Shown: positions 11,590 to 39,442 of the stretch, piece after piece
Position numbering within the stretch: position 1 is the stretch's first letter
Layout: each line of letters starts with the position of its first letter
Source: Escherichia phage vB_EcoM_SHAK9454
Length of the DNA: 39,471 bases
Sequence record: OR594184
Reading direction: 5' to 3' (one strand)
Made by a program: the position numbers and the translations under genes
The notes under the pieces: generated by a model
Database searches by the model: none
What the model was told of the DNA's origin: nothing
Seen by the model: the letters and a program-made list of their open reading frames with translations, nothing else

Positions 11590-12288
11590 ATGGCTAAAGA
11601 GCAACTGAAGACTTTCACCACTCCGGTAGCTGGTATCGTTGAGCCTTACGCATGGCTGAACAAAGCAGACACCAAGTTTAACGAGCGTGGTGAGCATAAG
11701 GTTAACCTGACATTCGACCTGAGCAACCATAAGGTCCGTAAGATGATTGATGTCTTACAGAAGATTCACGACGATGCGTATGCAAAAGCACTCGCAGACC
11801 ACGAGAAGAACCCACCTCAGGTTCAGCGTGGCAAGAAGCCTATTGAACCACGAGAAGGCGACATGCCGTGGATTGAGAATGGTGACGGTACTGTTACCCT
11901 TAAGTTTAAATGCTTTGCGTCTTACCTGAAAGACGGCAAGTCCGAGCCTATCGTATTACGGTTCTACGACACCGATGCTAAACTCATCCGTGACGTCCCG
12001 AATATCTGCGCTGGGTCTAAGCTGAAGGTCAAGTTTAAAGTCCTGCCGTTCAAGTGGAACGCTGCGACTGGTGCAAGCGTTAAGCTTCAGCTTGAGTCCT
12101 GCCTTCTGGTAGAACTGAAGGAGTGGAAAGGCGATGGTGCTGGTGGCGATGGTGGCTGGGGTGATGATGAAGACCTTGGTACTGGCTACAAAGCGTCAAC
12201 CGTTGGTGACTTCGGTGACGATGACTTCGGTGACGATGGTTCCGAAGGTGGTGACGACTCCAACTCTGGTGGCGATTACGACTTCTAA
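11590..12288 (+). CDS. Single-stranded DNA-binding protein (T7 gene 2.5-like)
   Basis: 232 aa, same length as T7 gp2.5; acidic C-terminal tail ending DYDF; GKKP..EGDMP and VKLQLES blocks. Confidence 0.92.
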   Translation: MAKEQLKTFTTPVAGIVEPYAWLNKADTKFNERGEHKVNLTFDLSNHKVRKMIDVLQKIHDDAYAKALADHEKNPPQVQRGKKPIEPREGDMPWIENGDGTVTLKFKCFASYLKDGKSEPIVLRFYDTDAKLIRDVPNICAGSKLKVKFKVLPFKWNAATGASVKLQLESCLLVELKEWKGDGAGGDGGWGDDEDLGTGYKASTVGDFGDDDFGDDGSEGGDDSNSGGDYDF

Positions 12289-12734
12289 TGAAACTTAAAG
12301 AGAAACTGGAGGCTTACTCTGAGGTTTCTCCTAGTGGATGCTGGGAGTGGCAACTCTCCCGGTTTCCTGCTGGATATGGTCGAATATCAATAGGACGTCA
12401 GAAACAGGACTACGCTCACCGAGTTTCATACAGGGAGTACAAAGGTCCAATACCTGATGGATTGGTTGTTAGACATAAATGTGATAATCCCTGCTGCTGT
12501 AACCCTGAGCACCTTGAACTAGGTACGCAGAAGGACAACATGAGGGACTGCATGGAGCGAGGACGAAAGTCTAATCCTCCCGTATTCAAAGGAGAAGCTA
12601 ATCACAAGACTAAGCTGACCAAGGAAAACGTAGAGTTCATCTTAGAGTCTATGCTACCAGCTATAGAACTAGCCAAGATGTTTGGAGTCACACCAGCGGC
12701 TATAAACTGGAGGAGACAACATGGCTGGACGTAG
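12288..12734 (+). CDS. HNH homing endonuclease
   Basis: CWEW...GYGR...HRVSY...HKCDNPCCCNPEHLELGTQKDN motif; codon usage richer in ATA/AGA/AGG than neighbours. Confidence 0.8.
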   Translation: MKLKEKLEAYSEVSPSGCWEWQLSRFPAGYGRISIGRQKQDYAHRVSYREYKGPIPDGLVVRHKCDNPCCCNPEHLELGTQKDNMRDCMERGRKSNPPVFKGEANHKTKLTKENVEFILESMLPAIELAKMFGVTPAAINWRRQHGWT

Positions 12735-13173
12735 CATAAGCAGAGGGCATCAAGTAGGAGCCTACCGCTCTGGACTTGAAGCAAAGAACCAGGAGTGGCT
12801 TGAGAAGAATGGAGTTAAGGCTGATTACGAGGCTTATAAGATAGGCTACGTAGTCCCATCTAGCGATCATTTTTACACGCCGGACTTCGTTTTACCTAAC
12901 GGTATCATCGTGGAGACCAAAGGTATCTTCGATAGTGATGACCGCAAGAAGCACCTTCTGGTACGAGAACAGCACCCAGAGTTAGACATCCGGTTCGTGT
13001 TCTCAAGTTCCCGCTCCAAGTTATACAAAGGGTCTCCGACCACGTATGGCGCATGGTGCGAAAAGAACGGCTATAAGTATGCCGATAAGTTCATCCCGGT
13101 TGAGTGGCTGAGAGAGGCGACTGTACGTCTGCCCTCAGGTATACTCATCCCCAAGAAGAAAGGAGTTAAGTGA
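12721..13173 (+). CDS. Endonuclease I, Holliday junction resolvase (T7 gene 3-like)
   Basis: YTPDF.LPNGI.VETKG...DDRKKHLL.REQHPELDIR.VFSSSR.KLYKGSPT.YG matches recalled T7 gp3. Confidence 0.92.
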   Translation: MAGRSISRGHQVGAYRSGLEAKNQEWLEKNGVKADYEAYKIGYVVPSSDHFYTPDFVLPNGIIVETKGIFDSDDRKKHLLVREQHPELDIRFVFSSSRSKLYKGSPTTYGAWCEKNGYKYADKFIPVEWLREATVRLPSGILIPKKKGVK

Positions 13174-13625
13174 TGACTCGTAAAGCAATCATCGTTGACC
13201 TGATGGATGGTGATGCACATTCAGACAACTACAAGGCAGGACAGGAGGTCTTCGTTAAGTTCTACCATAAGTCACTCAACCCTAGTGATGGAGACCTGTG
13301 GCAGGTGTCGCATGATGGTGTCAAGTGGCTGGCCTCAATGTATGGTCGCCGCCTGAAGTTTATAGATGCTGGTGATAAACCTCAAGTCCTGCCAGCCTCA
13401 AGCGTCCCTCCTGTCACCGTTAAACGTGAAGTCCTGACCATCAACAAGATTGGTGTAGGCCAGACGTTCATCGTCCATGGAAAGCCTGAAGAAGTTTACG
13501 TGAAGATTAGCAACTCACACGTCTTCAACCATAAGCATCTCCAGATGCACACCACGGACGCACAACGCTTCACCCAGCACCTGAATCTGGTGGTCGTAGA
13601 ATTGGTGGTGTACAATGGTAAGTAA
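13173..13625 (+). CDS. Hypothetical protein (150 aa) inserted between endonuclease I and lysozyme
   Basis: AGGAG 13161-13165 then ATG 13173 overlapping the endonuclease I stop (TGATG); no recognised motif. Confidence 0.65.
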   Translation: MTRKAIIVDLMDGDAHSDNYKAGQEVFVKFYHKSLNPSDGDLWQVSHDGVKWLASMYGRRLKFIDAGDKPQVLPASSVPPVTVKREVLTINKIGVGQTFIVHGKPEEVYVKISNSHVFNHKHLQMHTTDAQRFTQHLNLVVVELVVYNGK

Positions 13626-14073
13626 GGTACAGTTCAATCCACGGTCCCGGACCGACGCTATCTTCGTTCACTGTTCGGCTACCAAGCCAGAGATGGACAT
13701 CGGGGTAGAGACCATCCGTATGTGGCACAAGCAGCAAGGCTGGCTGGACGTAGGCTACCACTTTATCATCAAGCGCGATGGTACTGTGGAAGAGGGACGC
13801 CCGGTCAATGTCGTAGGGTCACACGTTAAGGACTGGAACTCACGGTCTGTAGGCGTCTGCCTTGTAGGTGGAATTGACGCTAAGGGCAAGTTTGAAGCTA
13901 ACTTCACTCCGGCCCAGATGAACTCCCTGCGCAACAAGCTGGCTGACCTGAAGGTCATGTATCCTCAGGCAGAAATCAAAGCACATCATGACGTAGCACC
14001 AAAGGCGTGTCCAAGTTTCGACTTGCAACGCTGGCTGTCTACCAATGAACTGGTCACTTCCGACCGAGGCTAA
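13615..14073 (+). CDS. Lysozyme, N-acetylmuramoyl-L-alanine amidase (T7 gene 3.5-like)
   Basis: TDAIFVHCSATKP...GWLDVGYHFIIKRDGTVE...HH.VAPKACPSFDL.RW...ELVTSDRG, near-identical blocks to recalled T7 lysozyme. Confidence 0.95.
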   Translation: MVSKVQFNPRSRTDAIFVHCSATKPEMDIGVETIRMWHKQQGWLDVGYHFIIKRDGTVEEGRPVNVVGSHVKDWNSRSVGVCLVGGIDAKGKFEANFTPAQMNSLRNKLADLKVMYPQAEIKAHHDVAPKACPSFDLQRWLSTNELVTSDRG

Positions 14074-26384: not shown

Positions 26385-28742
26385 ATGCCACTAATTACTC
26401 AATCAATCAAGAACCTTAAAGGTGGCATTAGCCAGCAGCCAGACATCCTGAGGTTCTCGGACCAAGGCGAGGAACAGGTAAACTGCTGGTCATCAGAGAG
26501 TGATGGCCTACAGAAGCGTCCACCTACAGTCTTCAAGAGACGTCTTAACATCGACGTTGGGAGCAACCCTAAGTTCCACCTGATTAACCGTGACGAGCAT
26601 GAGCAGTATTACATCGTGTTCAACGGGTCAAACATTCAGGTAGTTGACTTGAGTGGTAATCAATACTCAGTTTCCGGTGCGGTAGATTACGTTAAGTCGT
26701 CCAACCCGCGAGATGACATCCGTGTCGTTACTGTTGCAGACTATACGTTCATCGTGAACCGTAAGGGTGTCGTTAAAGGTGGAAGCGAGAAGTCACACTC
26801 TGGTTATAACCGCAAAGCACGAGCTTTAATTAACCTGCGTGGCGGACAGTATGGTCGAACCCTTAAGGTGGGAATCAACGGTGGCGTTAAGGTCTCGCAT
26901 AAGCTACCAGCAGGTAATGATGCCGAGAATGACCCACATAAGGTGGACGCTCAAACCATCGGTGCAGCTCTGAGAGACCTTCTTGTTGCTGCTTACCCTA
27001 CCTTCACGTTCGACCTTGGGTCTGGATTCCTGTTAATCACTGCCCCTTCAGGGACTGACATTAACTCAGTGGAGACGGAGGATGGCTATGCTAACCAGCT
27101 AATCAGCCCAGTACTCGACACGGTGCAAACAATCTCTAAGTTGCCTCTTGCAGCTCCAAATGGGTACATCATTAAGATTCAAGGTGAGACCAACAGTAGC
27201 GCCGATGAATATTACGTGATGTATGACTCCAACACTAAGACGTGGAAGGAGACAGTAGAGCCGGGAGTGGTCACTGGGTTCGATAACACCACAATGCCTC
27301 ATGCTCTGGTGAGACAATCTGACGGCTCCTTTGAGTTCAAGACTCTGGACTGGTCTAATCGTGGTGCTGGTAATGATGACACAAACCCTATGCCTAGCTT
27401 CGTGGATGCTACGATTAACGATGTGTTCTTCTACAGGAATAGGCTGGGGTTCTTGTCAGGCGAGAACGTAATCATGAGCCGTTCAGCCAGCTACTTTGCG
27501 TTCTTCCCTAAGAGTGTGGCTACACTGAGTGATGATGATCCTATTGACGTAGCTGTAAGTCATCCTAGAATCTCAATCCTTAAGTATGCCGTTCCGTTTA
27601 GCGAGCAGCTACTACTTTGGTCGGATGAGGTGCAGTTCGTGATGACAAGCTCTGGGGTCCTTACCTCGAAGTCTATCCAGCTTGATGTAGGCTCAGAGTT
27701 TGCTTTAGGAGATAATGCCAGACCGTTCGCTGTAGGACGCTCAGTCTTCTTCTCAGCTCCTCGTGGGTCATTCACCAGCATTAAGCGATACTTCGCTGTA
27801 GCTGATGTGTCTGATGTGAAGGATGCTGATGATACAACCGGTCACGTATTGTCCTACATCCCTAACGGGGTGTTTGACATTCAGGGGACAGGGACTGAGA
27901 ACTACATCTGCGTCAACTCTACAGGTGCATACAACCGAATCTACCTCTACAAGTTCTTGTTTAAGGACGGCGTACAGCTTCAAGCCTCTTGGTCGCACTG
28001 GGAGTTCCCTAAAGCTGATAAGATTCTGGCGTCTGCGTCGATTGGCTCTACCATGTTCATTGTTCGTCAGCACCAAGGCGGCGTGGACCTTGAGCACCTT
28101 AAGTTCATCAAGGAGGCAACTGACTTTCCGTTAGAGCCATATAGACTCCACGTTGACTCCAAGGTGTCTATGGTAATACCAATTGGCTCATACAACGCTG
28201 ACACCTATAAGACTACGGTTGACATTGGTTCTGCTTATGGTGGAAACGCTCCGTCTCCAGGTAGGTACTATCTGATTGACAGTCAGGGTGCCTACGTGGA
28301 CCTTGGTGAATTGACCGACATCTCAACTGTGGCTGTACTCAATGGTGATTGGTCAGGACGTACAGTGTTCATCGGACGGTCTTATCTGATGTCCTACAAG
28401 TTCTCACGGTTCCTGATTAAGATTGAAGACGAGAGTGGCACTCAGTCTGAAGACACTGGTCGTCTACAGCTTCGTCGTGCTTGGGTAAACTACAAGGACA
28501 CTGGCGCTCTTAGACTCATTGTCAGAAACGGTGAGCGGGAGTTCGTGAACACCTTTAATGGGTACACCCTTGGTCAGCAAACCATAGGGACTACCAACAT
28601 TGGGGATGGTCAGTATCGATTCGCTATGAATGGCAACGCATTAACCACGAGTCTAACCTTAGAGTCCGACTATCCTACCCCGGTGTCCATCGTTGGGTGT
28701 GGCTGGGAGGCGTCATACGCTAAGAAAGCTCGTTCCGTCTAA
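26385..28742 (+). CDS. Tail tubular protein B (T7 gene 12-like)
   Basis: 785-aa ORF (T7 gp12 is of similar size) following gene 11. Confidence 0.93.
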   Translation: MPLITQSIKNLKGGISQQPDILRFSDQGEEQVNCWSSESDGLQKRPPTVFKRRLNIDVGSNPKFHLINRDEHEQYYIVFNGSNIQVVDLSGNQYSVSGAVDYVKSSNPRDDIRVVTVADYTFIVNRKGVVKGGSEKSHSGYNRKARALINLRGGQYGRTLKVGINGGVKVSHKLPAGNDAENDPHKVDAQTIGAALRDLLVAAYPTFTFDLGSGFLLITAPSGTDINSVETEDGYANQLISPVLDTVQTISKLPLAAPNGYIIKIQGETNSSADEYYVMYDSNTKTWKETVEPGVVTGFDNTTMPHALVRQSDGSFEFKTLDWSNRGAGNDDTNPMPSFVDATINDVFFYRNRLGFLSGENVIMSRSASYFAFFPKSVATLSDDDPIDVAVSHPRISILKYAVPFSEQLLLWSDEVQFVMTSSGVLTSKSIQLDVGSEFALGDNARPFAVGRSVFFSAPRGSFTSIKRYFAVADVSDVKDADDTTGHVLSYIPNGVFDIQGTGTENYICVNSTGAYNRIYLYKFLFKDGVQLQASWSHWEFPKADKILASASIGSTMFIVRQHQGGVDLEHLKFIKEATDFPLEPYRLHVDSKVSMVIPIGSYNADTYKTTVDIGSAYGGNAPSPGRYYLIDSQGAYVDLGELTDISTVAVLNGDWSGRTVFIGRSYLMSYKFSRFLIKIEDESGTQSEDTGRLQLRRAWVNYKDTGALRLIVRNGEREFVNTFNGYTLGQQTIGTTNIGDGQYRFAMNGNALTTSLTLESDYPTPVSIVGCGWEASYAKKARSV

Positions 28743-28818: not shown

Positions 28819-29295
28819 ATGTATATTCGCAAGGCTACGGAACAGGATGTCCACTACTTTCTGTGGCATCTTTCAGCAGATGATGTTAATGAGTGCAAAG
28901 CAAACTATGGGTCAACCGTTGGTCTCTCTGAAAGACTGCTTAAGCATCTATCTCCGTCATCTGTGGTTTTAACGAATGGTGTAGGCGAAGTGTTTGCCTA
29001 TGGTGGAAACCAAGGGGATAACGTATGGTTCTTGACTTCCGGTCTTGTCAATAAGCTGAGACCTAAAGAGAAGCGGGAGTTCATAAAGCGTATCTCTGAG
29101 TACAGGGACTTAATGTTAGACCAATACGGGACCATCTGGAACTACGTGTGGTCAGGCAATAAGTCTCACATTAAATTCTTGAAGTTGCTTGGCGCTAAAT
29201 TCCATGATGATTGGGCTGTAAGCCCGGTAACTGGTGAGCGTTTTCAATTATTCACTATCTCTAAGGAGGACGTATGTGCGAGCCAATTAGCATAG
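28819..29295 (+). CDS. Internal virion protein A (T7 gene 13-like)
   Basis: 158-aa ORF after the phi13-like promoter; positional. Confidence 0.75.
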   Translation: MYIRKATEQDVHYFLWHLSADDVNECKANYGSTVGLSERLLKHLSPSSVVLTNGVGEVFAYGGNQGDNVWFLTSGLVNKLRPKEKREFIKRISEYRDLMLDQYGTIWNYVWSGNKSHIKFLKLLGAKFHDDWAVSPVTGERFQLFTISKEDVCASQLA

Positions 29296-29861
29296 GCATG
29301 GGTGTACTGTCTGTAGCCGGGGCCACTATGTCCGCATCCCAACAGGCCAAGGCCGAAGGTGCAGCAATTGACGCTCAGAACCGACAGGCTCAGGAAATGG
29401 TTAAGCAGATGAACTACTCTGACGCCAACCTGAGGATGCAGGAGCGAGACCTGAAGGAGCAGCAGATGGCTGAACTGACAGAGACCACGCTCAACGGTAT
29501 CCGCAATCAGGGTATGGTCCGAGCTGCGGTGGCTGAGTCCGGTCTGGAAGGTAACTCTATGGACAGGATTGAACGTCAGGTCGCAGGAGATACAGTCAAG
29601 GAGCGAGCAGGGATTACCGAAAGTTACAACCGCGACTATGCGGCTATCTTCGGGAACCGTATCGCCAACATTGAGAACACAAAGTCTGCTATCCGTGGTC
29701 AAGGTAAAATCATCAAGACCAGCCCACTGGCTCATGCACTTAATGTTGCTACAGCAGGGATGCAAGGTTACGCCGCTGGTAAGTCAATCTCTGGAGCGTC
29801 AAGCTCTGGTGGTGCTGCACCAATTAGTGCTGCTAAAGGCACACCTACAGGTCATAGCTAA
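29274..29861 (+). CDS. Internal virion protein B (T7 gene 14-like)
   Basis: 195 aa (T7 gp14 is of similar size); starts MC...; SMDRI.R block. Confidence 0.88.
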   Translation: MCEPISIGMGVLSVAGATMSASQQAKAEGAAIDAQNRQAQEMVKQMNYSDANLRMQERDLKEQQMAELTETTLNGIRNQGMVRAAVAESGLEGNSMDRIERQVAGDTVKERAGITESYNRDYAAIFGNRIANIENTKSAIRGQGKIIKTSPLAHALNVATAGMQGYAAGKSISGASSSGGAAPISAAKGTPTGHS

Positions 29862-29872
29862 GAGGAGGACTA

Positions 29873-32155
29873 ATGGCTAGTAATATTGAATCAGCTCTGG
29901 CTAATCGGACTATGGGTCGCGGCAGAGCGCCGGGTAAAACTATCGCCGTCAACTATCAAGCAGCCAGCGTTCAGGCTCCGACTGGTGACTCCGGTCTGGC
30001 TCGTGCGTTAACCAACTTCGTTGAGTCTGGGACAGGATTGTACAAGCAGTTCAAGGACGATGAAAAGACACGGGCCGACGAGAGGTCTAACGAGATTATC
30101 CGTAAGCTGACACCTCAGCAAAGACGTGAGGCTATCCAGAACGGTACATTGCTGTATCAGGATGACCCTTACGCTATGGAAGCACTTCGAGTCAAGACTG
30201 GTCGTAATGCTGCCTTTGCTGTAGACGACGAGATTAACGTTAAGATTCAGAACGGTGAGTTCCGTACACGTCAGGACATGGAAGAGTATCGCCACCAGCG
30301 ACTTCAGGATGCCGCTAAGTCCTATGCTGAAGAGGCAGGTATTAACCCTACCGACGAGTTCTTCCAGCGTGGCTTCAACGATAACATCACGGACAGAAAC
30401 ATCGCTATCTATGGGTCTTTCAATAAGTATTTCAGCAAGCAGTCTGAAGAGACAGCAATGTTGAACACTCGTATTGAGATGAACTCATTCCTGAACGATG
30501 GCGACCTGATGCGTTCACCTGAGTCTGGCAAGACATTCATGGCCTACCTTCGGGATGGATTGACGACTGCTGCTATACCTTCGGACCAGAGAGCACGGGA
30601 GGTCATTACCCAGACGGTCCGTGACGCAATCCAGAAGTCCGGCGGCTCAAACTTCCTACAGCAAGTGCGAGGCGAGAGAATCACCCTTAACGGTGTGGAT
30701 GCTACCATCGAAGAGATTGTAGGCCCTGACGTCTTCAATGCTGCTGTGGTTGAGGCTCAAGGTACCGAGTACAAGTTGGTGGCTAAGTATCAGGAAGACT
30801 TATCGTTAGGCGTTCAGTCTGCGATTCTTCAGGACGACCCAACCATCGGTCTGGCCCAGATTCAGAAACTCAAGGAGCAGAACAACCTGCTTCAGCCGGG
30901 GGAAGAACTCACGCCCCAGCGTCAGATGCTTATTAATGCCGAAGCCAGCTTACTGGAAGCGGTCAAGCGTAAGTCTGCTGAACAGGCGAAGGAGAACACT
31001 AAGTTAATCCAGACTCAGAACAAGCAACTGGTCATCGACCAAGTGTATCAGCGACGTCTGGCTGGGGACAACGTGTCCACCAACTATGAGGACCTTCCGG
31101 TCTCTGAAGCTACAGGAGAGTTCAAGCGTTCAGACATGAACAACTATGCGTCTGCAAAGCTACAGCAGATTGACCAGATGGACATCCCTGAGGCTGCTAA
31201 GGACGCTCAGAAGGTGGCAATGTTAAGAGCTGACACTAACAACGGTCCGTTCCGTAATGCATTCCAGACGCTTACTCAGGACGCTGCTGGTGAGTGGCAA
31301 GCTGCGGTCATCCGTGGACAGTACGACCCAGACAAGATGCAACGCTTCGAGTCTCTTCGTCGTGCCTACACTCAGGACCCTTCAAGTTTTGCTGCTCTGT
31401 ATCCTGACCAAGCTCAGTTGTTCTCTACGTTCGACCAGATGGACAAGATGGGTCTGGACCCTCAGACGATGATTGAAGCTGATAAGCAAGCTGCAAGTCA
31501 AAGCCGTGAGATGCGCATGGAGTCAGACAAGGCGTGGCAGGAGCTGAAGAACGACTCCAAGAACACCCAGTTGTCTCGCCTCCCAACGTCTCTGGACTCA
31601 AGTGCTCGTAAGGTATGGGACTCATGGTACTACCGTACAGGTAACGCTGATGCTGCAACTCAGCAGACTCAACGATGGCTGAATGAAAATACCGTAACGT
31701 TCCAGTCTGAAGGTTCTGACGGTAAGTCCATCGGCATGGTGTCAAAGCACCAGCTTATGGTCGGGGATAACCCAGAGTCGTGGCAGGTTGGTCGAGACAT
31801 TATCGACACCGCTCGTAAGCAGCTCATTAAGGCCAACCCTTGGGTAGTGAACTCTCAGTTGTCCGTTGTTGAACAGAACGGCTCTATCTTCCTCCAAGAC
31901 GCTACAGGGACTATTCGTATTCGCTACGATAAAGAACTTGTAGGTAAACTCTACCGCGAACAACAGCAGAAGGCACAAGATGCTGCATACGCTCAGGCAG
32001 AACGTGACGCTAACAAGCGAGCGCGTATCGTCGGGACTAAAGCTGCTGGTGACAAACGTCGAGCTGACCGAGAGGCCAACATCGAGAAGCGCGGAGGGAT
32101 GTACAATGACGTCTCATTGGAGGGTATCGCAAACGTACTAATCGGTAAGGAGTAA
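29873..32155 (+). CDS. Internal virion protein C (T7 gene 15-like)
   Basis: 760 aa; size and position. Confidence 0.9.
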   Translation: MASNIESALANRTMGRGRAPGKTIAVNYQAASVQAPTGDSGLARALTNFVESGTGLYKQFKDDEKTRADERSNEIIRKLTPQQRREAIQNGTLLYQDDPYAMEALRVKTGRNAAFAVDDEINVKIQNGEFRTRQDMEEYRHQRLQDAAKSYAEEAGINPTDEFFQRGFNDNITDRNIAIYGSFNKYFSKQSEETAMLNTRIEMNSFLNDGDLMRSPESGKTFMAYLRDGLTTAAIPSDQRAREVITQTVRDAIQKSGGSNFLQQVRGERITLNGVDATIEEIVGPDVFNAAVVEAQGTEYKLVAKYQEDLSLGVQSAILQDDPTIGLAQIQKLKEQNNLLQPGEELTPQRQMLINAEASLLEAVKRKSAEQAKENTKLIQTQNKQLVIDQVYQRRLAGDNVSTNYEDLPVSEATGEFKRSDMNNYASAKLQQIDQMDIPEAAKDAQKVAMLRADTNNGPFRNAFQTLTQDAAGEWQAAVIRGQYDPDKMQRFESLRRAYTQDPSSFAALYPDQAQLFSTFDQMDKMGLDPQTMIEADKQAASQSREMRMESDKAWQELKNDSKNTQLSRLPTSLDSSARKVWDSWYYRTGNADAATQQTQRWLNENTVTFQSEGSDGKSIGMVSKHQLMVGDNPESWQVGRDIIDTARKQLIKANPWVVNSQLSVVEQNGSIFLQDATGTIRIRYDKELVGKLYREQQQKAQDAAYAQAERDANKRARIVGTKAAGDKRRADREANIEKRGGMYNDVSLEGIANVLIGKE

Positions 32156-32159
32156 CATA

Positions 32160-35100
32160 ATGGCGACTCGTGGTATTCGCAATAACAATCCGGGTAACAT
32201 CCGGGTAAGTAAGGACCAATGGGAAGGAATGACTGGAGATGATGGCGCATTCGTCACCTTCGATAGTCCAGAGTCTGGCGTCCGAGCTTTAGGTAAAAAC
32301 CTGCTGTCCTACGGTCGCCAAGGTTATGATTCCATCGAGAAGATTATCAACAGATGGGCACCTCCTAACGAGAACGACACTAAGGCTTATATTGACTCAG
32401 TGGTGGCTGCAACTGGTATTCCAGCTACACAGAGTCTCGACCTATCGGACCCTGACACCCTGTCTTCTCTGGCACAAGCTATCAGCTTCCATGAGACAGG
32501 CTCACGGTACGACCCTGAAGTCTATCAGAAGGGAGTCGCACGGGCACTCAACGGCATTAGCCCAAAGACTCCACCAGTAAGCGCTAACGTATTTGACGCA
32601 CTCACGGAAGGACTCAAGGCTAAACCTAAAGTAGCTCTGGGTGAGAACCTTCCGACCGCTGCTGGTCTGAACATTGAGGGTCAAGCACCTGAAGCTCCCA
32701 ACGAATCGTTCGGTGAGATGTTCTATAAGGCTACTGGAGAGACCATGCAGGAGCAAGAGGACCGCTCTACGTGGTTCGGTTTCGGTGCGGCTACAGAAGC
32801 TGAAGTGAAGAACTCTATGGTCGGCGTGGCTATACGAGCTGGTCAGACTGAGGACTCACTGGATGTCATTGGCGATGTGTTCAACCCAACCAGATGGAAC
32901 AACCATAAGTGGTCTCGTGAGGAGCTAGACCAGATTCGTAACGCTGGGGTTTTGCCTCAGTATTACGGAGTCATTACTGGTGGCTCTCCTCAGAACCTGA
33001 CCGAGCTTATTAACTTGGCGCTTGAGAACCAGAAGTTGGACCAAGAGAAGGCCAAGGCTGGGACTGGTGCTCAACTGGCGGCTGGTGTGATTGGTGCTGG
33101 CGTGGACCCTCTGACCTACGTTCCTATTGCTGGGCAGGTAGGTAAAGGTGGTAAGCTAGTCAACAAGATGTTCACTGTGGCTGCTCAGTCTGGTGCTCTG
33201 GCTGGGGCATCCGAGATTGCTCGAACCTCAGTTGCTGGTGGGGACGCTCATGTTGCTGAAGCTATCCTTGGTGGTGCTCTTTTCGGTGGTGGCATGACTG
33301 CTATCGCTGATGGACTAGGTAGAGCCTTAGGTCGCAACACTAATGAGTTTGCTGGTCCAGCTACACGTTTGGAAGCTCGTGAGACCGCTCGTAACGTTGA
33401 TGGTCAGGACCTGTCCCGTCTCCCTATTCAGGAAGGTGAGCAGACCTTTAGTCATCAAGGCGTTAAGTTCGCTGACGTTCCGAATGAGCCGGGAAGTGTA
33501 CGATTAGAAGACGGTTCAATCCTGATTGGTGAGAACCCTCTGAACCCTAAGACACGTAAAGTCTTTGACGAAGTGATTGAGCCTGAACGTGCCGCTGCTG
33601 GTGTGAACCTTGGTGGGCTGACTGAGATTGGCCTGAAGCTGCTTCGGTCCGAGAACCCTGAGATTCGTGGAGTAGCTGCTGACTTAGTACGTTCACCGAC
33701 TGGTATGCAGTCTGGGGCCTCAGGTAAAATAGGGACAACTGCGTCAGACGTATTCGAGAGACTTCGTGCTGTGGACCATCGGTTCTACAATGACATCGAC
33801 GATGCGGTTACTGAGGCACTAAAGGACCCGTACTTCCAGACAGCATTCTGGCGAGACTCTGGCGCATTCCGTCAAGACATCTATCAGCGCGTGTCTATGG
33901 CTATCGAAGATGGTAGCGGAAACCTGAAGGCTGAATTGACTCCGGGAGAACTGAAAGTCTATGACCTGCTGAAGAACCAGTTCGACGCCAAGCGTGAGAT
34001 GATGGAGAACCCAGCGATGTTTGGTCGTCCAGACGCTCAGTCTATCTTTCCGGGTAGCCGCTTCAAGGGAACCTACGTCCCTCATGTGTATAGCAAACAG
34101 ATGAAGGAGCTGTACATCAAGGAGCTTGGGAGTCCAGAGGCGTTGCAGGAGGCCATCAAGAAGTCATGGTTGACCAGCTATGCGTCTCGACCTGAAGTCA
34201 AGAAACGTGTGGACGAGGCACTCTTAGAGGCTGACCCTACGTTGACTCCAGAAGGACTTGCGGCTGCGGTCGATAAGTACGCCAACGATAAGGCTTATGG
34301 TATCTCTCACACCGAGCAGTTCGAGCGTTCATCCGTAATGGAAGAGAACATCAATGGTCTGGTGGGTCTGGAGAACAACAGCTTCCTTGAGGCTCGTAAC
34401 CTGTTCGATAGCGATATGTCAATCGTCCTACCTAACGGTCAGACCTTCAGTGTCAACAACCTGCGTGAGTGGGACATGGACAAGATTGTCCCGGCCTACA
34501 ACCGTCGAGTTAATGGCGATATTGCTATCATGGCTGGTACAGGCAAGACCACGAAGGACATGAAGGACTTGGTTGAGACCCTGATGAACAAGGCTGGGGA
34601 TGACGGTAAGTTGAAAGGTGAAGTATCTACCTTACGTGACACTTTGAAGATTCTAACTGGTCGTGCTCGACGTGATGGTGCTGATGATGCGGCCTTCGCT
34701 ACCGTGATGCGCACAATGACAGACCTATCGTTCTTCGCTAAGAATGCCTACATGGGTGTTCAGAACTTAACGGAGATTGGTGGTATGCTGGCTCGTGGCA
34801 ACGTTCGTGCAATGCTGCATGGAGTCCCGATTTTCCGTGACCTAGCCTTCCGTAACAAGAAGGTTGGGGCCTCAGAGATTAAGGACCTGCACAATGTTAT
34901 CTTCGGTAAGGAACTGGATTACTCAATCCGTCCGTCTAAACAGGATGTCATTGACCGTCTGCGATCTTACAGTGACCTCGGTCGTGGTACAGCTACAGCT
35001 CTGGGGACTGCCACGTATTACACTGGCGAACTTGCAGTACGCTCTCCGTTCACTAAAGTCCTCAACGGTACGACCAACTACCTGTTAGATGCTGGACGTC

Positions 35101-36047
35101 AGGGCTTCCTGTCTGACATCGTGGAGCATAGCCTGACTGGTAGTAAGCGTAAGTTCGATGACCGCTGGCTGAAGACCGCTGGTATCTCTGACGAGCAGTG
35201 GAAGGGCATTAAGTCCCTAATCCGTGAGTCAGTGACTCGTGGTCCAGACGGGAAGTACACCATCAAGGATAAGAAGGCGTTCAGTCAGGACCCAAGGGCT
35301 ATGGACCTGTGGCGTATGGGTGACACCATCGCTGACGAGACGTTACTCCGGCCTCATAAGCTGTCAAACATGGACGCCAAGGCTTATGGTCCTCTCGCTA
35401 AGACTGTCCTTCAGTTTAAGAACTTCGTCATCAAGTCTATCAATGGGAGAACCATGCGAACCTTCTATAACGCCACGAAGAACAACAGAGCGATTGACGC
35501 TGCACTGTCGACCGTGATGTCTATGGGTCTGGCTGGAATGTACTACATGGCTCAGGCGCACATAAAGGCTTACGCTATGCAGGACGGTCGTGACCGAGAG
35601 TATCTGAAGCAAGCCCTTAACCCAACAATGATTGGCTATGCGGCGCTGTCCCGTAGCTCCCACTTAGGTGGTCCTCTTGGGGTCGCCAACATTCTGGGAG
35701 GCATCGCTGGATATGAGGACACTAAGATGCTCCGCTCGTCAATCCTTCCGCGATCACCTACCGAGAAGACGGAGAAGCCAATCGCCTTTGGTGCTGCTTC
35801 CAGTGGTCCGGTAATGAATGTTGTCGGCAACTTCCTTGAGCAGGTCCCGGCTTTCGGCTATGCTGCTAACGTTGGTGCTACGGCTTACAACTTGGCGGGA
35901 TACCTCAAGGCTGATACCCGTGTCAACGAGCGAGACTACATGACCGGGATGTATAACACGTTCCGTGAACTTGTACCGAATGACCCGATTACCCAGAAGT
36001 TGCTGCTTGGAACGTTTGAGGAGCAGGGCATCCACATCAAGGACTAA
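32160..36047 (+). CDS. Internal virion protein D (T7 gene 16-like) with a non-canonical N-terminal domain
   Basis: 1295 aa; from about residue 200 matches recalled T7 gp16 (STWFGFGAATEAEVKNSM, GDIAIMAGTGKTTKD, RPHKLSNMDAKAYG); first ~150 aa lack the SLT motif. Confidence 0.93.
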   Translation: MATRGIRNNNPGNIRVSKDQWEGMTGDDGAFVTFDSPESGVRALGKNLLSYGRQGYDSIEKIINRWAPPNENDTKAYIDSVVAATGIPATQSLDLSDPDTLSSLAQAISFHETGSRYDPEVYQKGVARALNGISPKTPPVSANVFDALTEGLKAKPKVALGENLPTAAGLNIEGQAPEAPNESFGEMFYKATGETMQEQEDRSTWFGFGAATEAEVKNSMVGVAIRAGQTEDSLDVIGDVFNPTRWNNHKWSREELDQIRNAGVLPQYYGVITGGSPQNLTELINLALENQKLDQEKAKAGTGAQLAAGVIGAGVDPLTYVPIAGQVGKGGKLVNKMFTVAAQSGALAGASEIARTSVAGGDAHVAEAILGGALFGGGMTAIADGLGRALGRNTNEFAGPATRLEARETARNVDGQDLSRLPIQEGEQTFSHQGVKFADVPNEPGSVRLEDGSILIGENPLNPKTRKVFDEVIEPERAAAGVNLGGLTEIGLKLLRSENPEIRGVAADLVRSPTGMQSGASGKIGTTASDVFERLRAVDHRFYNDIDDAVTEALKDPYFQTAFWRDSGAFRQDIYQRVSMAIEDGSGNLKAELTPGELKVYDLLKNQFDAKREMMENPAMFGRPDAQSIFPGSRFKGTYVPHVYSKQMKELYIKELGSPEALQEAIKKSWLTSYASRPEVKKRVDEALLEADPTLTPEGLAAAVDKYANDKAYGISHTEQFERSSVMEENINGLVGLENNSFLEARNLFDSDMSIVLPNGQTFSVNNLREWDMDKIVPAYNRRVNGDIAIMAGTGKTTKDMKDLVETLMNKAGDDGKLKGEVSTLRDTLKILTGRARRDGADDAAFATVMRTMTDLSFFAKNAYMGVQNLTEIGGMLARGNVRAMLHGVPIFRDLAFRNKKVGASEIKDLHNVIFGKELDYSIRPSKQDVIDRLRSYSDLGRGTATALGTATYYTGELAVRSPFTKVLNGTTNYLLDAGRQGFLSDIVEHSLTGSKRKFDDRWLKTAGISDEQWKGIKSLIRESVTRGPDGKYTIKDKKAFSQDPRAMDLWRMGDTIADETLLRPHKLSNMDAKAYGPLAKTVLQFKNFVIKSINGRTMRTFYNATKNNRAIDAALSTVMSMGLAGMYYMAQAHIKAYAMQDGRDREYLKQALNPTMIGYAALSRSSHLGGPLGVANILGGIAGYEDTKMLRSSILPRSPTEKTEKPIAFGAASSGPVMNVVGNFLEQVPAFGYAANVGATAYNLAGYLKADTRVNERDYMTGMYNTFRELVPNDPITQKLLLGTFEEQGIHIKD

Positions 36048-36111: not shown

Positions 36112-38292
36112 ATGTCCACGATTACACAATTCCCTTCAGGAAACACTCAGTACAGGATAGAGTTCGACTACCTAGCCAGAACGTTTGTTGTTGTTACGCT
36201 GGTGAATAGCTCTAACCCTACCCTGAACCGTGTACTGGAAGTTGGTCGAGATTACCGATTCCTTAATCCAACGATGATTGAGATGTTGGCTGACCAATCA
36301 GGTTTCGACATCGTTCGTATTCACCGTCAGACTGGAACTGACTTAGTGGTAGACTTCAGGAATGGCTCAGTGTTGACAGCTAGTGACCTTACCAATTCAG
36401 AGCTTCAGGCTATCCATATTGCAGAAGAAGGTCGAGACCAAACGGTTGACTTAGCGAAGGAATATGCCGATGCTGCTGGTAGCTCTGCTGGCAACGCTAA
36501 GGATAGCGAGGACGAAGCACGCCGAATCGCTGCGAGTATCAAGGCAGCTGGTAAAATTGGCTATATTACCCGTAGCTCCTTCGAGAAAGGCTTCAACGTT
36601 ACAACATGGAACGAGGTCCTGCTATGGGAAGAGGATGGTGATTATTACCGCTGGGATGGTATGCTTCCAAAGAACGTTCCCGCTGGTTCAACTCCTGAAT
36701 CATCTGGTGGTATTGGGATGAGTGCGTGGGTTAGTGTTGGTGATGCGTCACTTAGAGCAAACCTGTCTGATAGCGATGGCGCTAAATACATAGGCAGTGG
36801 AGAAAGGACATTACTTGAGCACAACAATGATGTTTTGCACTCAAAAGACTTTCCAACACTGCAGGCAGCTATAGATGCATCTTTGCAAAAAAATGATCTA
36901 CTGGTGTCTCCTGGCAATTATACTGAAAAAGTTACTATTGGAAACGCGCAGTTAAAAGGTGTTGGCGGGGCCACGGTACTAAAAACTCCGGCAGACTTTA
37001 CAAACACTGTTCAGGTTAATTTAGCTACACCTCATTGGCAATTCCGCCATAGTGGTGGTTTTGCTATAGATGGTTCCGGGACAACCGGGGCCGTAGGTAT
37101 TAGTTTTGACCCGTCAGACCAATATTCCGGGCGTCATAATTTTAGTGATTTATACATCCACAACATCAACAAGGCCATTCAGAAGCCTTCCGGGAACATC
37201 GGCAATACGTGGAGAAGTATTGGGGTATCTACGTGTGATTGGGGGTATTACGCGATTAGTGGCTCGGAGATGCATTGCGGGGCCGATACCCTCTACAATA
37301 TCCACTTCGACGGCATCTCCACCTATGCCGTCTACCTAAACGGTACTGTCGATAACGGTGGGATAGGCGGATGGTGGCTTAAAGACTCCATTATTGAGGC
37401 TTCCGGAGGCGGCGGGATATACTTAAAAAGCAAATCGGGTGACTGTCCTACATCTCCATGCGGGGTATCCAATGTATGGATGGAAGCTATTGCAACATCA
37501 TCGGCTGTTCAGGTAGATGGCGTGGCGCAAAAACCGCGAGTTCTCAAGTTGGTAGACACCGCGATATTCTTTGCTGAGTATTCTTATCTCAACAACATCG
37601 AGCTATCCAACTCCAACTTAGTAACTTATGGTTGCCGTTTTGACAACGCTGATGGTAATCAGGATATTGTAGTGGATGCACAAAGCACCATTGTAGCCCA
37701 CGATGTGTATTTAAACGGCAGTTCTGGAAAGGACGTTATTGTAGAGTCTGTCGCGTCGCAATCCGCAACGATAGCCACTACAAACTTGTCTCTACGAGGA
37801 AATTTAACAAGGGGACGAGTGTTTAATACGCCGACGGGGAATAAGTTAAAAGCTATCACATTTGACTCAGGTAGCCATAATTTTTCTGGTAGCGGTACCG
37901 TTAACGGTTCGACTGTATCTGACGGACTTCACGCCGCTACATGTACCGAATTTTCATTCCCTGGGTCCGGTTTATATGAAATGGTAGCGTCAAGAACGAC
38001 ACTTACATCCGGTAGATGGTACGTGTGGGGCGTCAACTCTCGCCTCCAATCAGGAACAGCAGATGTGAGTATAACGTTAGGTATTACTATGGGTAGCGTT
38101 TATACTAAGTCTGGTGAGTGGATTAGCACTTTCGGTGTAGGAAAGGCATCTACCACTGGCACTGTAGCGCTATACGTTTCCACAGGAGGAGGTTCGGGAG
38201 CTACGGTCAGATTCAGTGACTTTTTCATCGCTGAGTTTACGACGCAAGCTCAGGCTTTATCTTTCGCCAATTCAAGGATGTCGTTATCATAA
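36112..38292 (+). CDS. Tail fiber / tailspike: T7 gp17-like N-terminal adaptor fused to a beta-helix (depolymerase-like) domain
   Basis: N-terminus YRIEFDYLARTFVVVTL...RDYRF...VDFRNGSVLTASDL...IHIAEEGRD is T7 gp17-like; remainder is G/N/S/T-rich with repetitive rungs; GC and codon usage drop from about 36780. Confidence 0.85.
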   Translation: MSTITQFPSGNTQYRIEFDYLARTFVVVTLVNSSNPTLNRVLEVGRDYRFLNPTMIEMLADQSGFDIVRIHRQTGTDLVVDFRNGSVLTASDLTNSELQAIHIAEEGRDQTVDLAKEYADAAGSSAGNAKDSEDEARRIAASIKAAGKIGYITRSSFEKGFNVTTWNEVLLWEEDGDYYRWDGMLPKNVPAGSTPESSGGIGMSAWVSVGDASLRANLSDSDGAKYIGSGERTLLEHNNDVLHSKDFPTLQAAIDASLQKNDLLVSPGNYTEKVTIGNAQLKGVGGATVLKTPADFTNTVQVNLATPHWQFRHSGGFAIDGSGTTGAVGISFDPSDQYSGRHNFSDLYIHNINKAIQKPSGNIGNTWRSIGVSTCDWGYYAISGSEMHCGADTLYNIHFDGISTYAVYLNGTVDNGGIGGWWLKDSIIEASGGGGIYLKSKSGDCPTSPCGVSNVWMEAIATSSAVQVDGVAQKPRVLKLVDTAIFFAEYSYLNNIELSNSNLVTYGCRFDNADGNQDIVVDAQSTIVAHDVYLNGSSGKDVIVESVASQSATIATTNLSLRGNLTRGRVFNTPTGNKLKAITFDSGSHNFSGSGTVNGSTVSDGLHAATCTEFSFPGSGLYEMVASRTTLTSGRWYVWGVNSRLQSGTADVSITLGITMGSVYTKSGEWISTFGVGKASTTGTVALYVSTGGGSGATVRFSDFFIAEFTTQAQALSFANSRMSLS

Positions 38293-38436: not shown

Positions 38437-38631
38437 ATGATTGAGTTAGACTTCAAGAATGAGGTCCTTAAAGCCTCTCCTATCGTCGGGACCGCTGCGG
38501 CTGATGGTGCCAGTCGGTTCTTCTTCGGACTTACACTGAACGAATGGTTCTACGTTGCAGCTATCGCGTACACCGTTGTCCAGATTGGTGTGCTAGTCTA
38601 TAAAACGATTAAAGGAGGTGGTAAAACATGA
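38437..38631 (+). CDS. Holin (T7 gene 17.5-like)
   Basis: ASPIVGTAAADGASRFFFGLTLNEWFYVAAIAYTVVQIG near-identical to recalled T7 gp17.5. Confidence 0.92.
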   Translation: MIELDFKNEVLKASPIVGTAAADGASRFFFGLTLNEWFYVAAIAYTVVQIGVLVYKTIKGGGKT

Positions 38632-38891
38632 CGCAGATGGACTTAGAGAAGTTCCTCTTGATGCTTGATACTGAGCGTGCTCGACTTATGCTGCAAGACT
38701 TGCGGGATGACACTAAGCGTTCACCTCAGCTCTACAACGCCATTGAGAAGCTGCTTGCTCGTCACAACTTTGTGATAAGCAAGGTGTCTGTTGACGAGAA
38801 GACGCTGGCTGATATGGAGGCCCTGAACGCAGAGTACGATAAGGTGCTTTCAGCGACTGAGGATAATGACACCGGGTATGGCGTTCAATAA
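38628..38891 (+). CDS. Terminase small subunit (T7 gene 18-like)
   Basis: 87 aa; ATG overlaps the holin stop; position before Rz and the terminase large subunit. Confidence 0.88.
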   Translation: MTQMDLEKFLLMLDTERARLMLQDLRDDTKRSPQLYNAIEKLLARHNFVISKVSVDEKTLADMEALNAEYDKVLSATEDNDTGYGVQ

Positions 38892-38992: not shown

Positions 38993-39442
38993 ATGCTCGA
39001 ATTTTTAAAGAGAGCGGCTCCGTGGTTACTTGCAGCAGTGATGTTTGCTGGTGGCTACCACACCGCTAACAATAAGTGGGAGGCTAAGGTAAATGAAGAA
39101 TACACCTCGAATCTTAAGGCATCGGAAGATACAAGGCTTGCTGTCCAAGCTGAAGTCAACAAAGTGTCCAAACGGTTTCAGGACGAAATGTCCTCGCTGG
39201 AAGGCAGCACTGATAGGATTATTGCTGATCTTCAGTCTGACAATAAGCGGCTGCGCATCCGAGTCAAGCCCACGAGTGGAACCACGCAAAGTGACGGTCG
39301 ATGCGTCATTGATGACTACGCCGAACTTGATGAACGAGATGCTAAACGTCTTATCGCCATCGGAGTGAAAGGAGACAAGTGGATTAAGGCCCTTCAGGAC
39401 ACTGTGAGAGCCTTACAGCAAGATAAGGAGGTGACGCATTGA
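38993..39442 (+). CDS. Rz-like i-spanin (T7 gene 18.5-like)
   Basis: 149 aa; N-terminal transmembrane segment APWLLAAVMFAGGY then charged coiled-coil-like region. Confidence 0.85.
   Translation: MLEFLKRAAPWLLAAVMFAGGYHTANNKWEAKVNEEYTSNLKASEDTRLAVQAEVNKVSKRFQDEMSSLEGSTDRIIADLQSDNKRLRIRVKPTSGTTQSDGRCVIDDYAELDERDAKRLIAIGVKGDKWIKALQDTVRALQQDKEVTH
39093..39368 (+). CDS. Rz1-like o-spanin lipoprotein nested in the +1 frame of Rz (T7 gene 18.7-like)
   Basis: Signal and lipobox ALIGLLLIFSLTISGC; the true start may be an internal codon of this frame. Confidence 0.6.
   Translation: MKNTPRILRHRKIQGLLSKLKSTKCPNGFRTKCPRWKAALIGLLLIFSLTISGCASESSPRVEPRKVTVDASLMTTPNLMNEMLNVLSPSE

Follow-up and report, generated by a model that had tools for sequence, protein, structure and literature searches.

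The internal virion protein D (gp16) of Escherichia phage vB_EcoM_SHAK9454 is very likely a T7-type ejection protein in which a peptidoglycan glycosidase head of the Enc34 type replaces the GH23 SLT head. Residues 1 to approximately 130 of this protein belong to the Enc34-endolysin/PHA02564 family. An earlier sequence-only reading of the same DNA had suggested a swap to a different, possibly muralytic, module at this end of gp16; the similarity of the domain to Enc34/PHA02564 in sequence, fold and conserved signature supports that suggestion; catalysis by the gp16 domain itself is inferred. The window, by which we mean the whole 39,471-nt stretch of DNA analysed, is the genome of a Kayfunavirus, a K1F-like relative of T7. 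The features discussed below are listed in Table 1.

Table 1. Coordinates of gp16, its parts and the neighbouring and lysis genes in the window
Feature	Position	Strand	Remarks
Amidase_2 (T7-type amidase, lysis)	13615..14073
Tail tubular B	26385..28742
gp13	28819..29295
gp14 (internal virion protein B)	29274..29861	+	phrog_805
gp15 (internal virion protein C)	29873..32155	+	phrog_1339; PDB 9vvp 'Gp28'; T7 gp15; partner of gp16 in the core and ejectosome
Shine-Dalgarno AAGGAG	32147..32152	+	7 nt upstream of the gp16 ATG, within the end of gp15; read from the sequence
gp16 (internal virion protein D)	32160..36047	+	1295 aa plus stop (translation); phrog_342 match over aa 6-1293
Enc34-type (PHA02564) muralytic domain, aa 1-130	32160..32549	+
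N-terminal family motif RGIRNNNPGNIR, aa 4-15	32169..32204	+	also in Enc34
Trp66 codon TGG	32355..32357	+	Enc34 Trp79 (HMMER alignment to 7q47); motif RWAPP
Tyr77 codon TAT	32388..32390	+	Enc34 Tyr95 (HMMER alignment); invariant, 87/87
Glu112 codon GAG, in HETGS	32493..32495	+	proposed catalytic Glu131 of Enc34; HE(T/N)GS; invariant, 87/87
Linker, aa ~131-206	32550..32777	+	weak homology to the T7 'molecular tape' (T7 aa 157-228); ~30% identity
Conserved gp16 body, aa 207-1295	32778..36044	+	48-84% identity to T7 in most bins
Tail fibre	36112..38292
Holin	38437..38631
Small terminase	38628..38891
Spanin	38993..39442

The body of gp16 is that of the T7 ejection protein

The translated protein starts with MATRGIRNNNPGNIRVSKDQWEGMTGDDGAFVTF, as quoted in the sequence-only reading, and its gene lies directly after gp15, which ends in a TAA stop codon at 32153-32155. 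The order gp14-gp15-gp16-gp17 is that of T7, with the tail fibre gene following gp16. The first 600 bases of gp16 are 100% identical in Kayfunavirus AN24P4 and 97–99.8% identical in many K1F-like coliphages and Salmonella phages; a more distant relative, STP-SP4 (classified as Autographiviridae; Studiervirinae; Kayfunavirus), is 78–79% identical. Three open reading frames nested in this region (32326..32580 on the plus strand, 32502..32756 and 31993..32250 on the minus strand) were rejected as spurious because none of them matches a PHROG and the gene that contains them is under strong purifying selection.

Residues 125–1295 of gp16 align with residues 152–1315 of T7 gp16 (from NC_001604) at 54% identity in BLASTP, and residues 1–124 gave no BLASTP alignment to the T7 protein. 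In a global alignment scored in 25-residue bins, identity to T7 was approximately 20% over residues 1–125, which is noise level, and approximately 30% over residues 126–200, whereas most bins past residue 201 were 48–84% identical. The sequence-only reading had placed the start of the alignment to T7 gp16 at about residue 200. This holds for strong similarity, but detectable homology starts earlier, at approximately residue 125. The weakly conserved stretch in between is a linker: BLASTP pairs residues 125–206 with residues 152–228 of T7 gp16, which comprise the 'molecular tape' as defined for T7 (PMC8954989), and residues 134–139 have a pLDDT below 50 in the AlphaFold2 model described below.

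A near-identical protein is already present in the Protein Data Bank. 'Gp29' (chain L) of PDB 9VVP is approximately 99% identical to gp16 over all 1,295 residues, and this entry, a solved Kayfunavirus internal core from a near-identical phage, contains eight gp15-like ('Gp28') and four gp16-like chains, the numbers also seen in the T7 core. Our literature search found no paper on 9VVP. Together, the homology of the body, the phrog_342 match, the gene order and the near-identical protein in the 9VVP core identify the protein as a T7-type gp16. The likeness to T7 gp16 (PDB 7EYB, 7K5C and 6YT5) extends to an orthologous body, the gene order and an N-terminal muralytic head followed by a tape-homologous linker. 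The heads themselves differ. That of T7 is a GH23 SLT lytic transglycosylase (PF01464, with E37), whereas the Kayfunavirus head is of the Enc34 type, probably hydrolytic and without detectable homology to SLT.

The N-terminal domain belongs to the Enc34-endolysin family

When all PDB sequences were searched, gp16 had two matches of relevance, 9vvp 'Gp29' and 7q47, which is the Enc34 endolysin's catalytic domain; the latter aligned with residues 3–122 of gp16 (7q47_A; phmmer E=5e-15). A homologue search with residues 1–134 of gp16 returned 946 proteins, which are mostly standalone, 130–220 residues long and without a Pfam domain. Eighty-seven of these N-domain homologues were aligned, and this alignment underlies all of the conservation counts given here. 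In the PDB, the resulting profile matched only 9vvp (1.8e-53) and 7q47 (2.8e-40). Consistent with this assignment, the PHROG endolysin families 873 and 1044 match residues 2–176 and 2–115 of gp16, respectively; the PHROG families that match within residues 2–176 carry the annotations endolysin, head protein, tape measure and tail injection transglycosylase.

AlphaFold2, run on the alignment of 87 homologues, gave a confident model of the domain (mean pLDDT 90.5), which has five helices and a short beta-hairpin at residues 24–34. Among PDB structures, Foldseek matched this model only to 7q47 (TM 0.80, probability 1.00), with the runner-up at E=0.57. The model resembles the Enc34 structure: the fold is all-helical, a permuted lysozyme alpha-lobe as in 7Q47. 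The homologues stop at approximately residue 129 and the final helix of the model spans residues 119–131, giving a globular domain of approximately 125–130 residues.

The gp16 domain differs from the Enc34 enzyme in some respects. The Enc34 ORF39 endolysin, from a Hafnia phage (PDB 7Q47; CDD PHA02564, 'V virion protein'), has several insertions compared with the compact version of approximately 130 residues in gp16, and its crystal structure was described with a loop where the gp16 model has the beta-hairpin. Both Enc34 and M4Lys of Salmonella phage BSPM4 are endolysins, whereas the Kayfunavirus domain sits at the N terminus of a 1,295-residue virion ejection protein. The Enc34 family as a whole has been described as an all-helical, circularly permuted and very distant relative of the lysozyme alpha-lobe that GH73 and GH23 share (PMC8943055). 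Given this kinship, the N-terminal domain of gp16 is 'non-SLT' at the level of the family, and not a member of an unrelated fold class.

The proposed catalytic residues are conserved and the domain is under purifying selection

Thirteen positions are invariant in the 87 homologues: N8, N10, N13, R15, W21, G23, G40, R42, A67, P68, N72, Y77 and E112. The first four lie in the N-terminal family motif, in which R4, G5, I6, R7, N9, P11, G12 and I14 are also at least 90% conserved. In the HMMER alignment to 7q47, in which the PDB chain index is offset by +1 from the numbering of the Enc34 paper, Glu112, Tyr77 and Trp66 of gp16 correspond to Glu131, Tyr95 and Trp79 of Enc34. Glu131 superposes on the catalytic glutamate of GH73 and GH23 enzymes, in which Trp79 and Tyr95 also have counterparts; its catalytic role was assigned through this superposition rather than by mutagenesis (PMC8943055). 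Degradation of peptidoglycan has been shown experimentally for two members of the family, Enc34 and M4Lys (PMC8943055, PMC7143992); lysis by the Enc34 catalytic domain was seen with E. coli, P. aeruginosa and H. alvei whose outer membrane had been permeabilised (PMC8943055). In the gp16 model, Glu112 lies in the fourth of the five helices (residues 98–113). Glu112, Tyr77 and Trp66 are all invariant over six protein architectures, including gp16, Sit, epsilon15-like and standalone proteins; position 66 is tryptophan in 78 and tyrosine in 9 of the 87 homologues. Comparison with STP-SP4 gave a dN/dS of 0.12 for the N-terminal domain, which indicates that it is under purifying selection.

These observations bear on whether the domain could be a structural head without catalytic function, which only decorates the gp15/gp16 tunnel or helps in assembly of the core. 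We consider this improbable. Glu112 and Tyr77 are strictly conserved, and gp16 lineages that are 79% and 44% identical keep both residues and the NNNPGNIR motif, with tryptophan or tyrosine always present at position 66, as do true endolysins. The low dN/dS also argues against an inert head, as does the recurrence of the module exactly at the place of SLT in other injection proteins, described below.

The domain is distinct from SLT, with a leaning towards GH73

The sequence-only reading had noted that the N-terminal region of gp16 lacks the SLT motif. This proved correct, although the region concerned is approximately 130 residues long rather than 150–180. A Pfam scan found nothing at E<=1 in the whole of gp16 or in its first 200 residues, whereas the first 200 residues of T7 gp16, the positive control, matched PF01464 SLT at 5e-31 in the same scan. 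An NCBIfam scan of the whole protein and of residues 1–200 was likewise empty. These empty scans reflect absent models and not an absent domain.

We also considered that the domain might be a highly divergent SLT/GH23 lytic transglycosylase, the outcome that a sensitive profile search had been expected to reveal if the idea of a domain swap was wrong. Near-identical genes in GenBank are named 'peptidoglycan transglycosylase' or 'peptidoglycan lytic exotransglycosylase', and the authors of the Enc34 study argue that the family shares a very distant ancestor with GH23 and GH73 and has a spatially equivalent glutamate (PMC8943055). However, the product names were probably carried over from T7, and the searches came out negative at each level: none of the 87 homologues has an SLT match in Pfam, and hhalign of the 87-homologue profile against the SLT domain of T7 gp16 (residues 1–156) returned a probability of 0.14%, that is, no relationship. 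The position of the proposed catalytic residue also differs. The conserved glutamate lies in a C-terminal helix, in keeping with the permuted order, and the Glu-Ser pair that ends an N-terminal helix in SLT enzymes is missing; the sole such pair in the domain, E38-S39, is unconserved, with glutamate in 45 of the 87 homologues and mostly tyrosine at position 39. Finally, GH23 is not the nearest structural neighbour, as GH23 chains are absent from the top 60 structural matches. We therefore regard a divergent SLT domain as very improbable.

The GH73 N-acetylglucosaminidases (the C. difficile Ecd09610 domain, 8YXK, and FlgJ, 5DN5) have no significant sequence match to gp16, and compared with GH73 the Enc34-type domain has a permuted order of helices and no canonical beta-lobe (PMC8943055). 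Two observations nevertheless lean towards GH73 and away from GH23: the absence of GH23 chains from the top 60 structural matches, and sub-threshold matches to Glucosaminidase PF01832 in 12 of the 87 homologues (best E 0.008) against none to SLT. gp16 itself has no Pfam match.

SLT and Enc34-type modules are exchanged on injection proteins

To place the gp16 domain among its relatives, we can draw on searches of phage genomes and of protein clusters. By tblastn, the N-terminal domain was found in 734 phage records. Most of the approximately 220 records with at least 60% identity are gp16 genes of the Kayfunavirus type; the remaining records include lysis endolysins (of Chivirus, Seuratvirus and BcepGomr), a 138-aa gene of Mu-like Pseudomonas phages and several virion proteins. 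The T7-type SLT head was found in 1,223 records, including Klebsiella, Yersinia and Pseudomonas T7-like phages, which suggests that Studiervirinae commonly have SLT and Kayfunavirus the Enc34-type head. In a profile search of 1.84 billion cluster representatives, 18,384 matched the Enc34-type family at E<=1e-3, of which 12,970 still did so at E<=1e-10. Some members consist of the domain by itself; in others, of up to approximately 1,400 residues, it lies at the N terminus, in the middle or at the C terminus, and one protein has four copies of it.

Several of these proteins are injection proteins in their own right. The structural injection transglycosylase Sit of phage P1 has an SLT domain at residues 748–867, whereas Sit of D6, a P1-like phage in which the gene is syntenic, has an Enc34-type domain at approximately residues 721–826; a Pfam scan of D6 Sit found no domain, and thus no SLT. 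The two Sit proteins are homologous elsewhere, with clear similarity over only part of their length. This exchange parallels the one in gp16, but Sit is a tape-measure-like protein of a myovirus tail and its domain is internal, whereas that of gp16 is N-terminal. In Burkholderia phage Bp-AMP1 (Autographiviridae, Okabevirinae), the counterpart of gp16 opens with an Enc34-type domain; its first residues are MADPIGIRQNNPGNIR. The internal virion protein D of a Providencia phage carries the module at 36% identity (found in BFVD), and in the Uetakevirus Tyrion the domain lies inside an 837-aa protein encoded next after two internal virion proteins. SLT and Enc34-type modules thus behave as interchangeable cassettes on injection proteins. 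Exchange of muralytic modules on ejection proteins is also well documented for SP6, K1-5 and phiKMV (PMC5380687, PMC8954989).

A proposed role in opening the cell wall at entry

Because gp16 has a muralytic head where T7 has SLT, and because the lysis functions (Amidase_2, holin and spanin) are encoded apart from gp16, the head is most simply read as a virion-associated lysin for opening the wall locally at entry. On ejection of T7 gp16 from the core, its N-terminal domain comes to lie in the periplasm, on the gp15 tunnel (PMC8954989). By analogy, the N-terminal domain studied here most likely opens peptidoglycan locally during ejection, as the SLT domain of T7 does. Standalone homologues do occur near lysis genes (the metagenomic P0013 is found immediately downstream of baseplate and tail genes, with an Rz-type Phage_lysis gene three genes further on), the Mu-like phage Zilla has a standalone Enc34-type homologue, and the Chivirus and Seuratvirus endolysins are of this type, but we rejected as extremely improbable that the gp16 domain is the lysis endolysin of this phage, or a second one, rather than an entry enzyme, because it is fused to a 1,165-aa ejection protein that is packaged within the capsid core, a T7-type amidase, a holin and a spanin are encoded elsewhere in the genome, and no signal, SAR or transmembrane element lies ahead of the domain.

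For a head that acts at entry, we propose the following sequence of events, with the role and timing of the domain in ejection inferred largely from T7. gp16 would be packaged together with gp14 and gp15 into the internal core and, at infection, leave the particle through the tail. Once in the periplasm, the N-terminal domain would cut glycan strands locally, with Glu112 acting as the acid catalyst and Tyr77 and Trp66 positioning the sugar. The linker and the conserved body would then build a trans-envelope conduit for DNA together with gp15. In T7, the transglycosylase activity of gp16 is required if the peptidoglycan is highly cross-linked (PMC8954989, citing Moak & Molineux 2000). T7 gp16 E37 mutants are reported to be delayed at low temperature (20 C) and in stationary-phase cells (Moak & Molineux 2000). 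Because T7 depends on its SLT activity only in certain circumstances, the contribution of the Kayfunavirus head may be conditional too.

The bond that is cut is probably GlcNAc-beta-1,4-MurNAc, which would make the domain a hydrolytic, GH73-like N-acetylglucosaminidase, and not the MurNAc-GlcNAc bond cut by SLT enzymes. For the Enc34-type family, bond specificity is based on one LC-MS study, in which M4Lys freed GlcNAc from muropeptides (PMC7143992). The same study also recorded an endopeptidase-like product that it left unexplained, and the activity is termed 'muramidase' in one legend (PMC7143992).

Discussion

Much of what is described here was already known in its parts: the domain family has been characterised, gp16 is present in hundreds of GenBank records and a near-identical protein is in the PDB. 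A mass spectrometry study of a Citrobacter phage lists gp16 and says nothing on its domain (PMC4925675). We found no literature linking Kayfunavirus gp16 to an Enc34-type instead of an SLT head; the K1F genome paper (Scholl & Merril 2005) lay outside the coverage of this search. The head swap is a real but ordinary module exchange, in which a known enzyme family is placed on a known ejection protein. It is new as a context for this family and not surprising in kind.

It is conceivable, although we think it unlikely, that the exchange of heads is adaptive and alters the chemistry by which the wall is breached, with a hydrolytic GlcNAc-MurNAc glucosaminidase taking the place of a non-hydrolytic lytic transglycosylase. 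A lytic transglycosylase needs a free C6-OH of MurNAc. If the adaptive reading is true, the exchange would, for example, make ejection insensitive to MurNAc O-acetylation, anhydro ends or inhibitors of lytic transglycosylases made by the host. Three unrelated injection proteins (T7-type gp16, P1-type Sit and the Okabevirinae gp16 equivalent) show the exchange at the same position, and the Enc34-type module is also found in gp16 of a Providencia phage; both observations are compatible with adaptation and far from proof of it.

The names given to gp16 in GenBank vary, and include 'internal virion protein with endolysin domain', 'peptidoglycan hydrolase', 'peptidoglycan transglycosylase' and 'endo-type membrane-bound chitopentaose'. 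The labels 'peptidoglycan transglycosylase' and 'lytic exotransglycosylase' were apparently transferred from T7, and they call for correction: the head of gp16 belongs to a family other than SLT and is probably a hydrolase. Neither Pfam nor NCBIfam has a model for the Enc34-type family, so standard domain scans miss it. The practical value of the finding lies in this corrected annotation and in drawing attention to a very large family that lacks a Pfam model. Kayfunaviruses include the K1F-like phages of phage-therapy work, and they offer a natural comparison with which to ask whether the type of wall-cutting enzyme carried on the ejectosome matters.

The Enc34-type family and the predicted fold of its gp16 member

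The Enc34-type domain that heads gp16 (internal virion protein D) belongs to a very large family. At E ≤ 1e-3 it numbers 18,384 representatives of 50% clusters, yet neither Pfam-A nor NCBIfam has a model for it. Its architectures are highly diverse; a 762-aa member, P0121, contains four copies of the domain. In the AlphaFold2 model of the gp16 N-domain, a short β-hairpin is predicted at residues 24–34 (strands 24–27 and 31–34), whereas the Enc34 crystal structure was described without β structure and with a large loop where GH73 has its β-lobe (PMC8943055). The names given in GenBank to near-identical genes (records H2, H4, H12, H33 and H34) disagree, reading 'peptidoglycan transglycosylase', 'peptidoglycan lytic exotransglycosylase' or 'endo-type membrane-bound chitopentaose'. 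These product names are probably wrong for a gp16 gene headed by an Enc34-type domain.

The gp16 body and other genes of the window

Residues 551–700 of gp16 are a mosaic segment within the gp16 body, with 52–68% identity to the Kayfunavirus relative STP-SP4 compared with 88–100% in most of the adjoining body; dN was 0.32 and dS was saturated. In the tail fibre/spike gene, similarity to the tail spike of the solved Kayfunavirus (9vvr) is confined to the N-terminal 225 residues, the T7-type adaptor; the C-terminal receptor-binding part is unlike that of 9vvr, as expected for host-range modules. The HNH_3 open reading frame is probably a homing endonuclease insertion, and a Pfam scan of the 151-aa open reading frame gave no match.

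Exchange of muralytic modules on ejection proteins

A parallel to the gp16 case is found in the Sit proteins of phage P1 and the P1-like phage D6, which are encoded by syntenic genes. P1 Sit carries an SLT domain recognized by Pfam, whereas D6 Sit, for which a Pfam scan found no match, carries an Enc34-type domain instead. The Enc34-type module is also present on the gp16 equivalents of other Autographiviridae, namely Burkholderia phage Bp-AMP1 (Okabevirinae) and Providencia phage PSTRCR_120, whose internal virion protein D (BFVD A0A7T6ZMU3) matched the N-domain model at 36% identity. In Enterobacter phage Tyrion (Uetakevirus), the domain lies in a 'head protein' whose gene immediately follows two 'internal virion proteins'; epsilon15-like phages thus probably have, in this protein, an ejection protein that bears a muralytic module.

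Locations of the features described
Feature	Location	Strand	Detail
gp16 Enc34-type domain	window 32160-32549
gp16 region in AlphaFold2 model	window 32160-32579
gp16 mosaic segment	window 33810-34259
Tail fibre/spike gene	window 36112-38292
HNH_3 endonuclease ORF	window 12288-12734		148 aa; between T7-type SSB gene (11590..12288) and endonuclease I (12721..13173)
151-aa ORF	window 13170-13625		between endonuclease I and Amidase_2 lysozyme gene
P1 sit	L011:15992-19411	(-)	SLT at aa 748-867
D6 sit	L010:1838-5617	(+)	Enc34-type domain ~aa 721-826
Bp-AMP1 module	L008:3941-4360		N-terminal start MADPIGIRQNNPGNIR
Tyrion 'head protein'	L007:4200-6710		837 aa; Enc34-type domain ~aa 268-382
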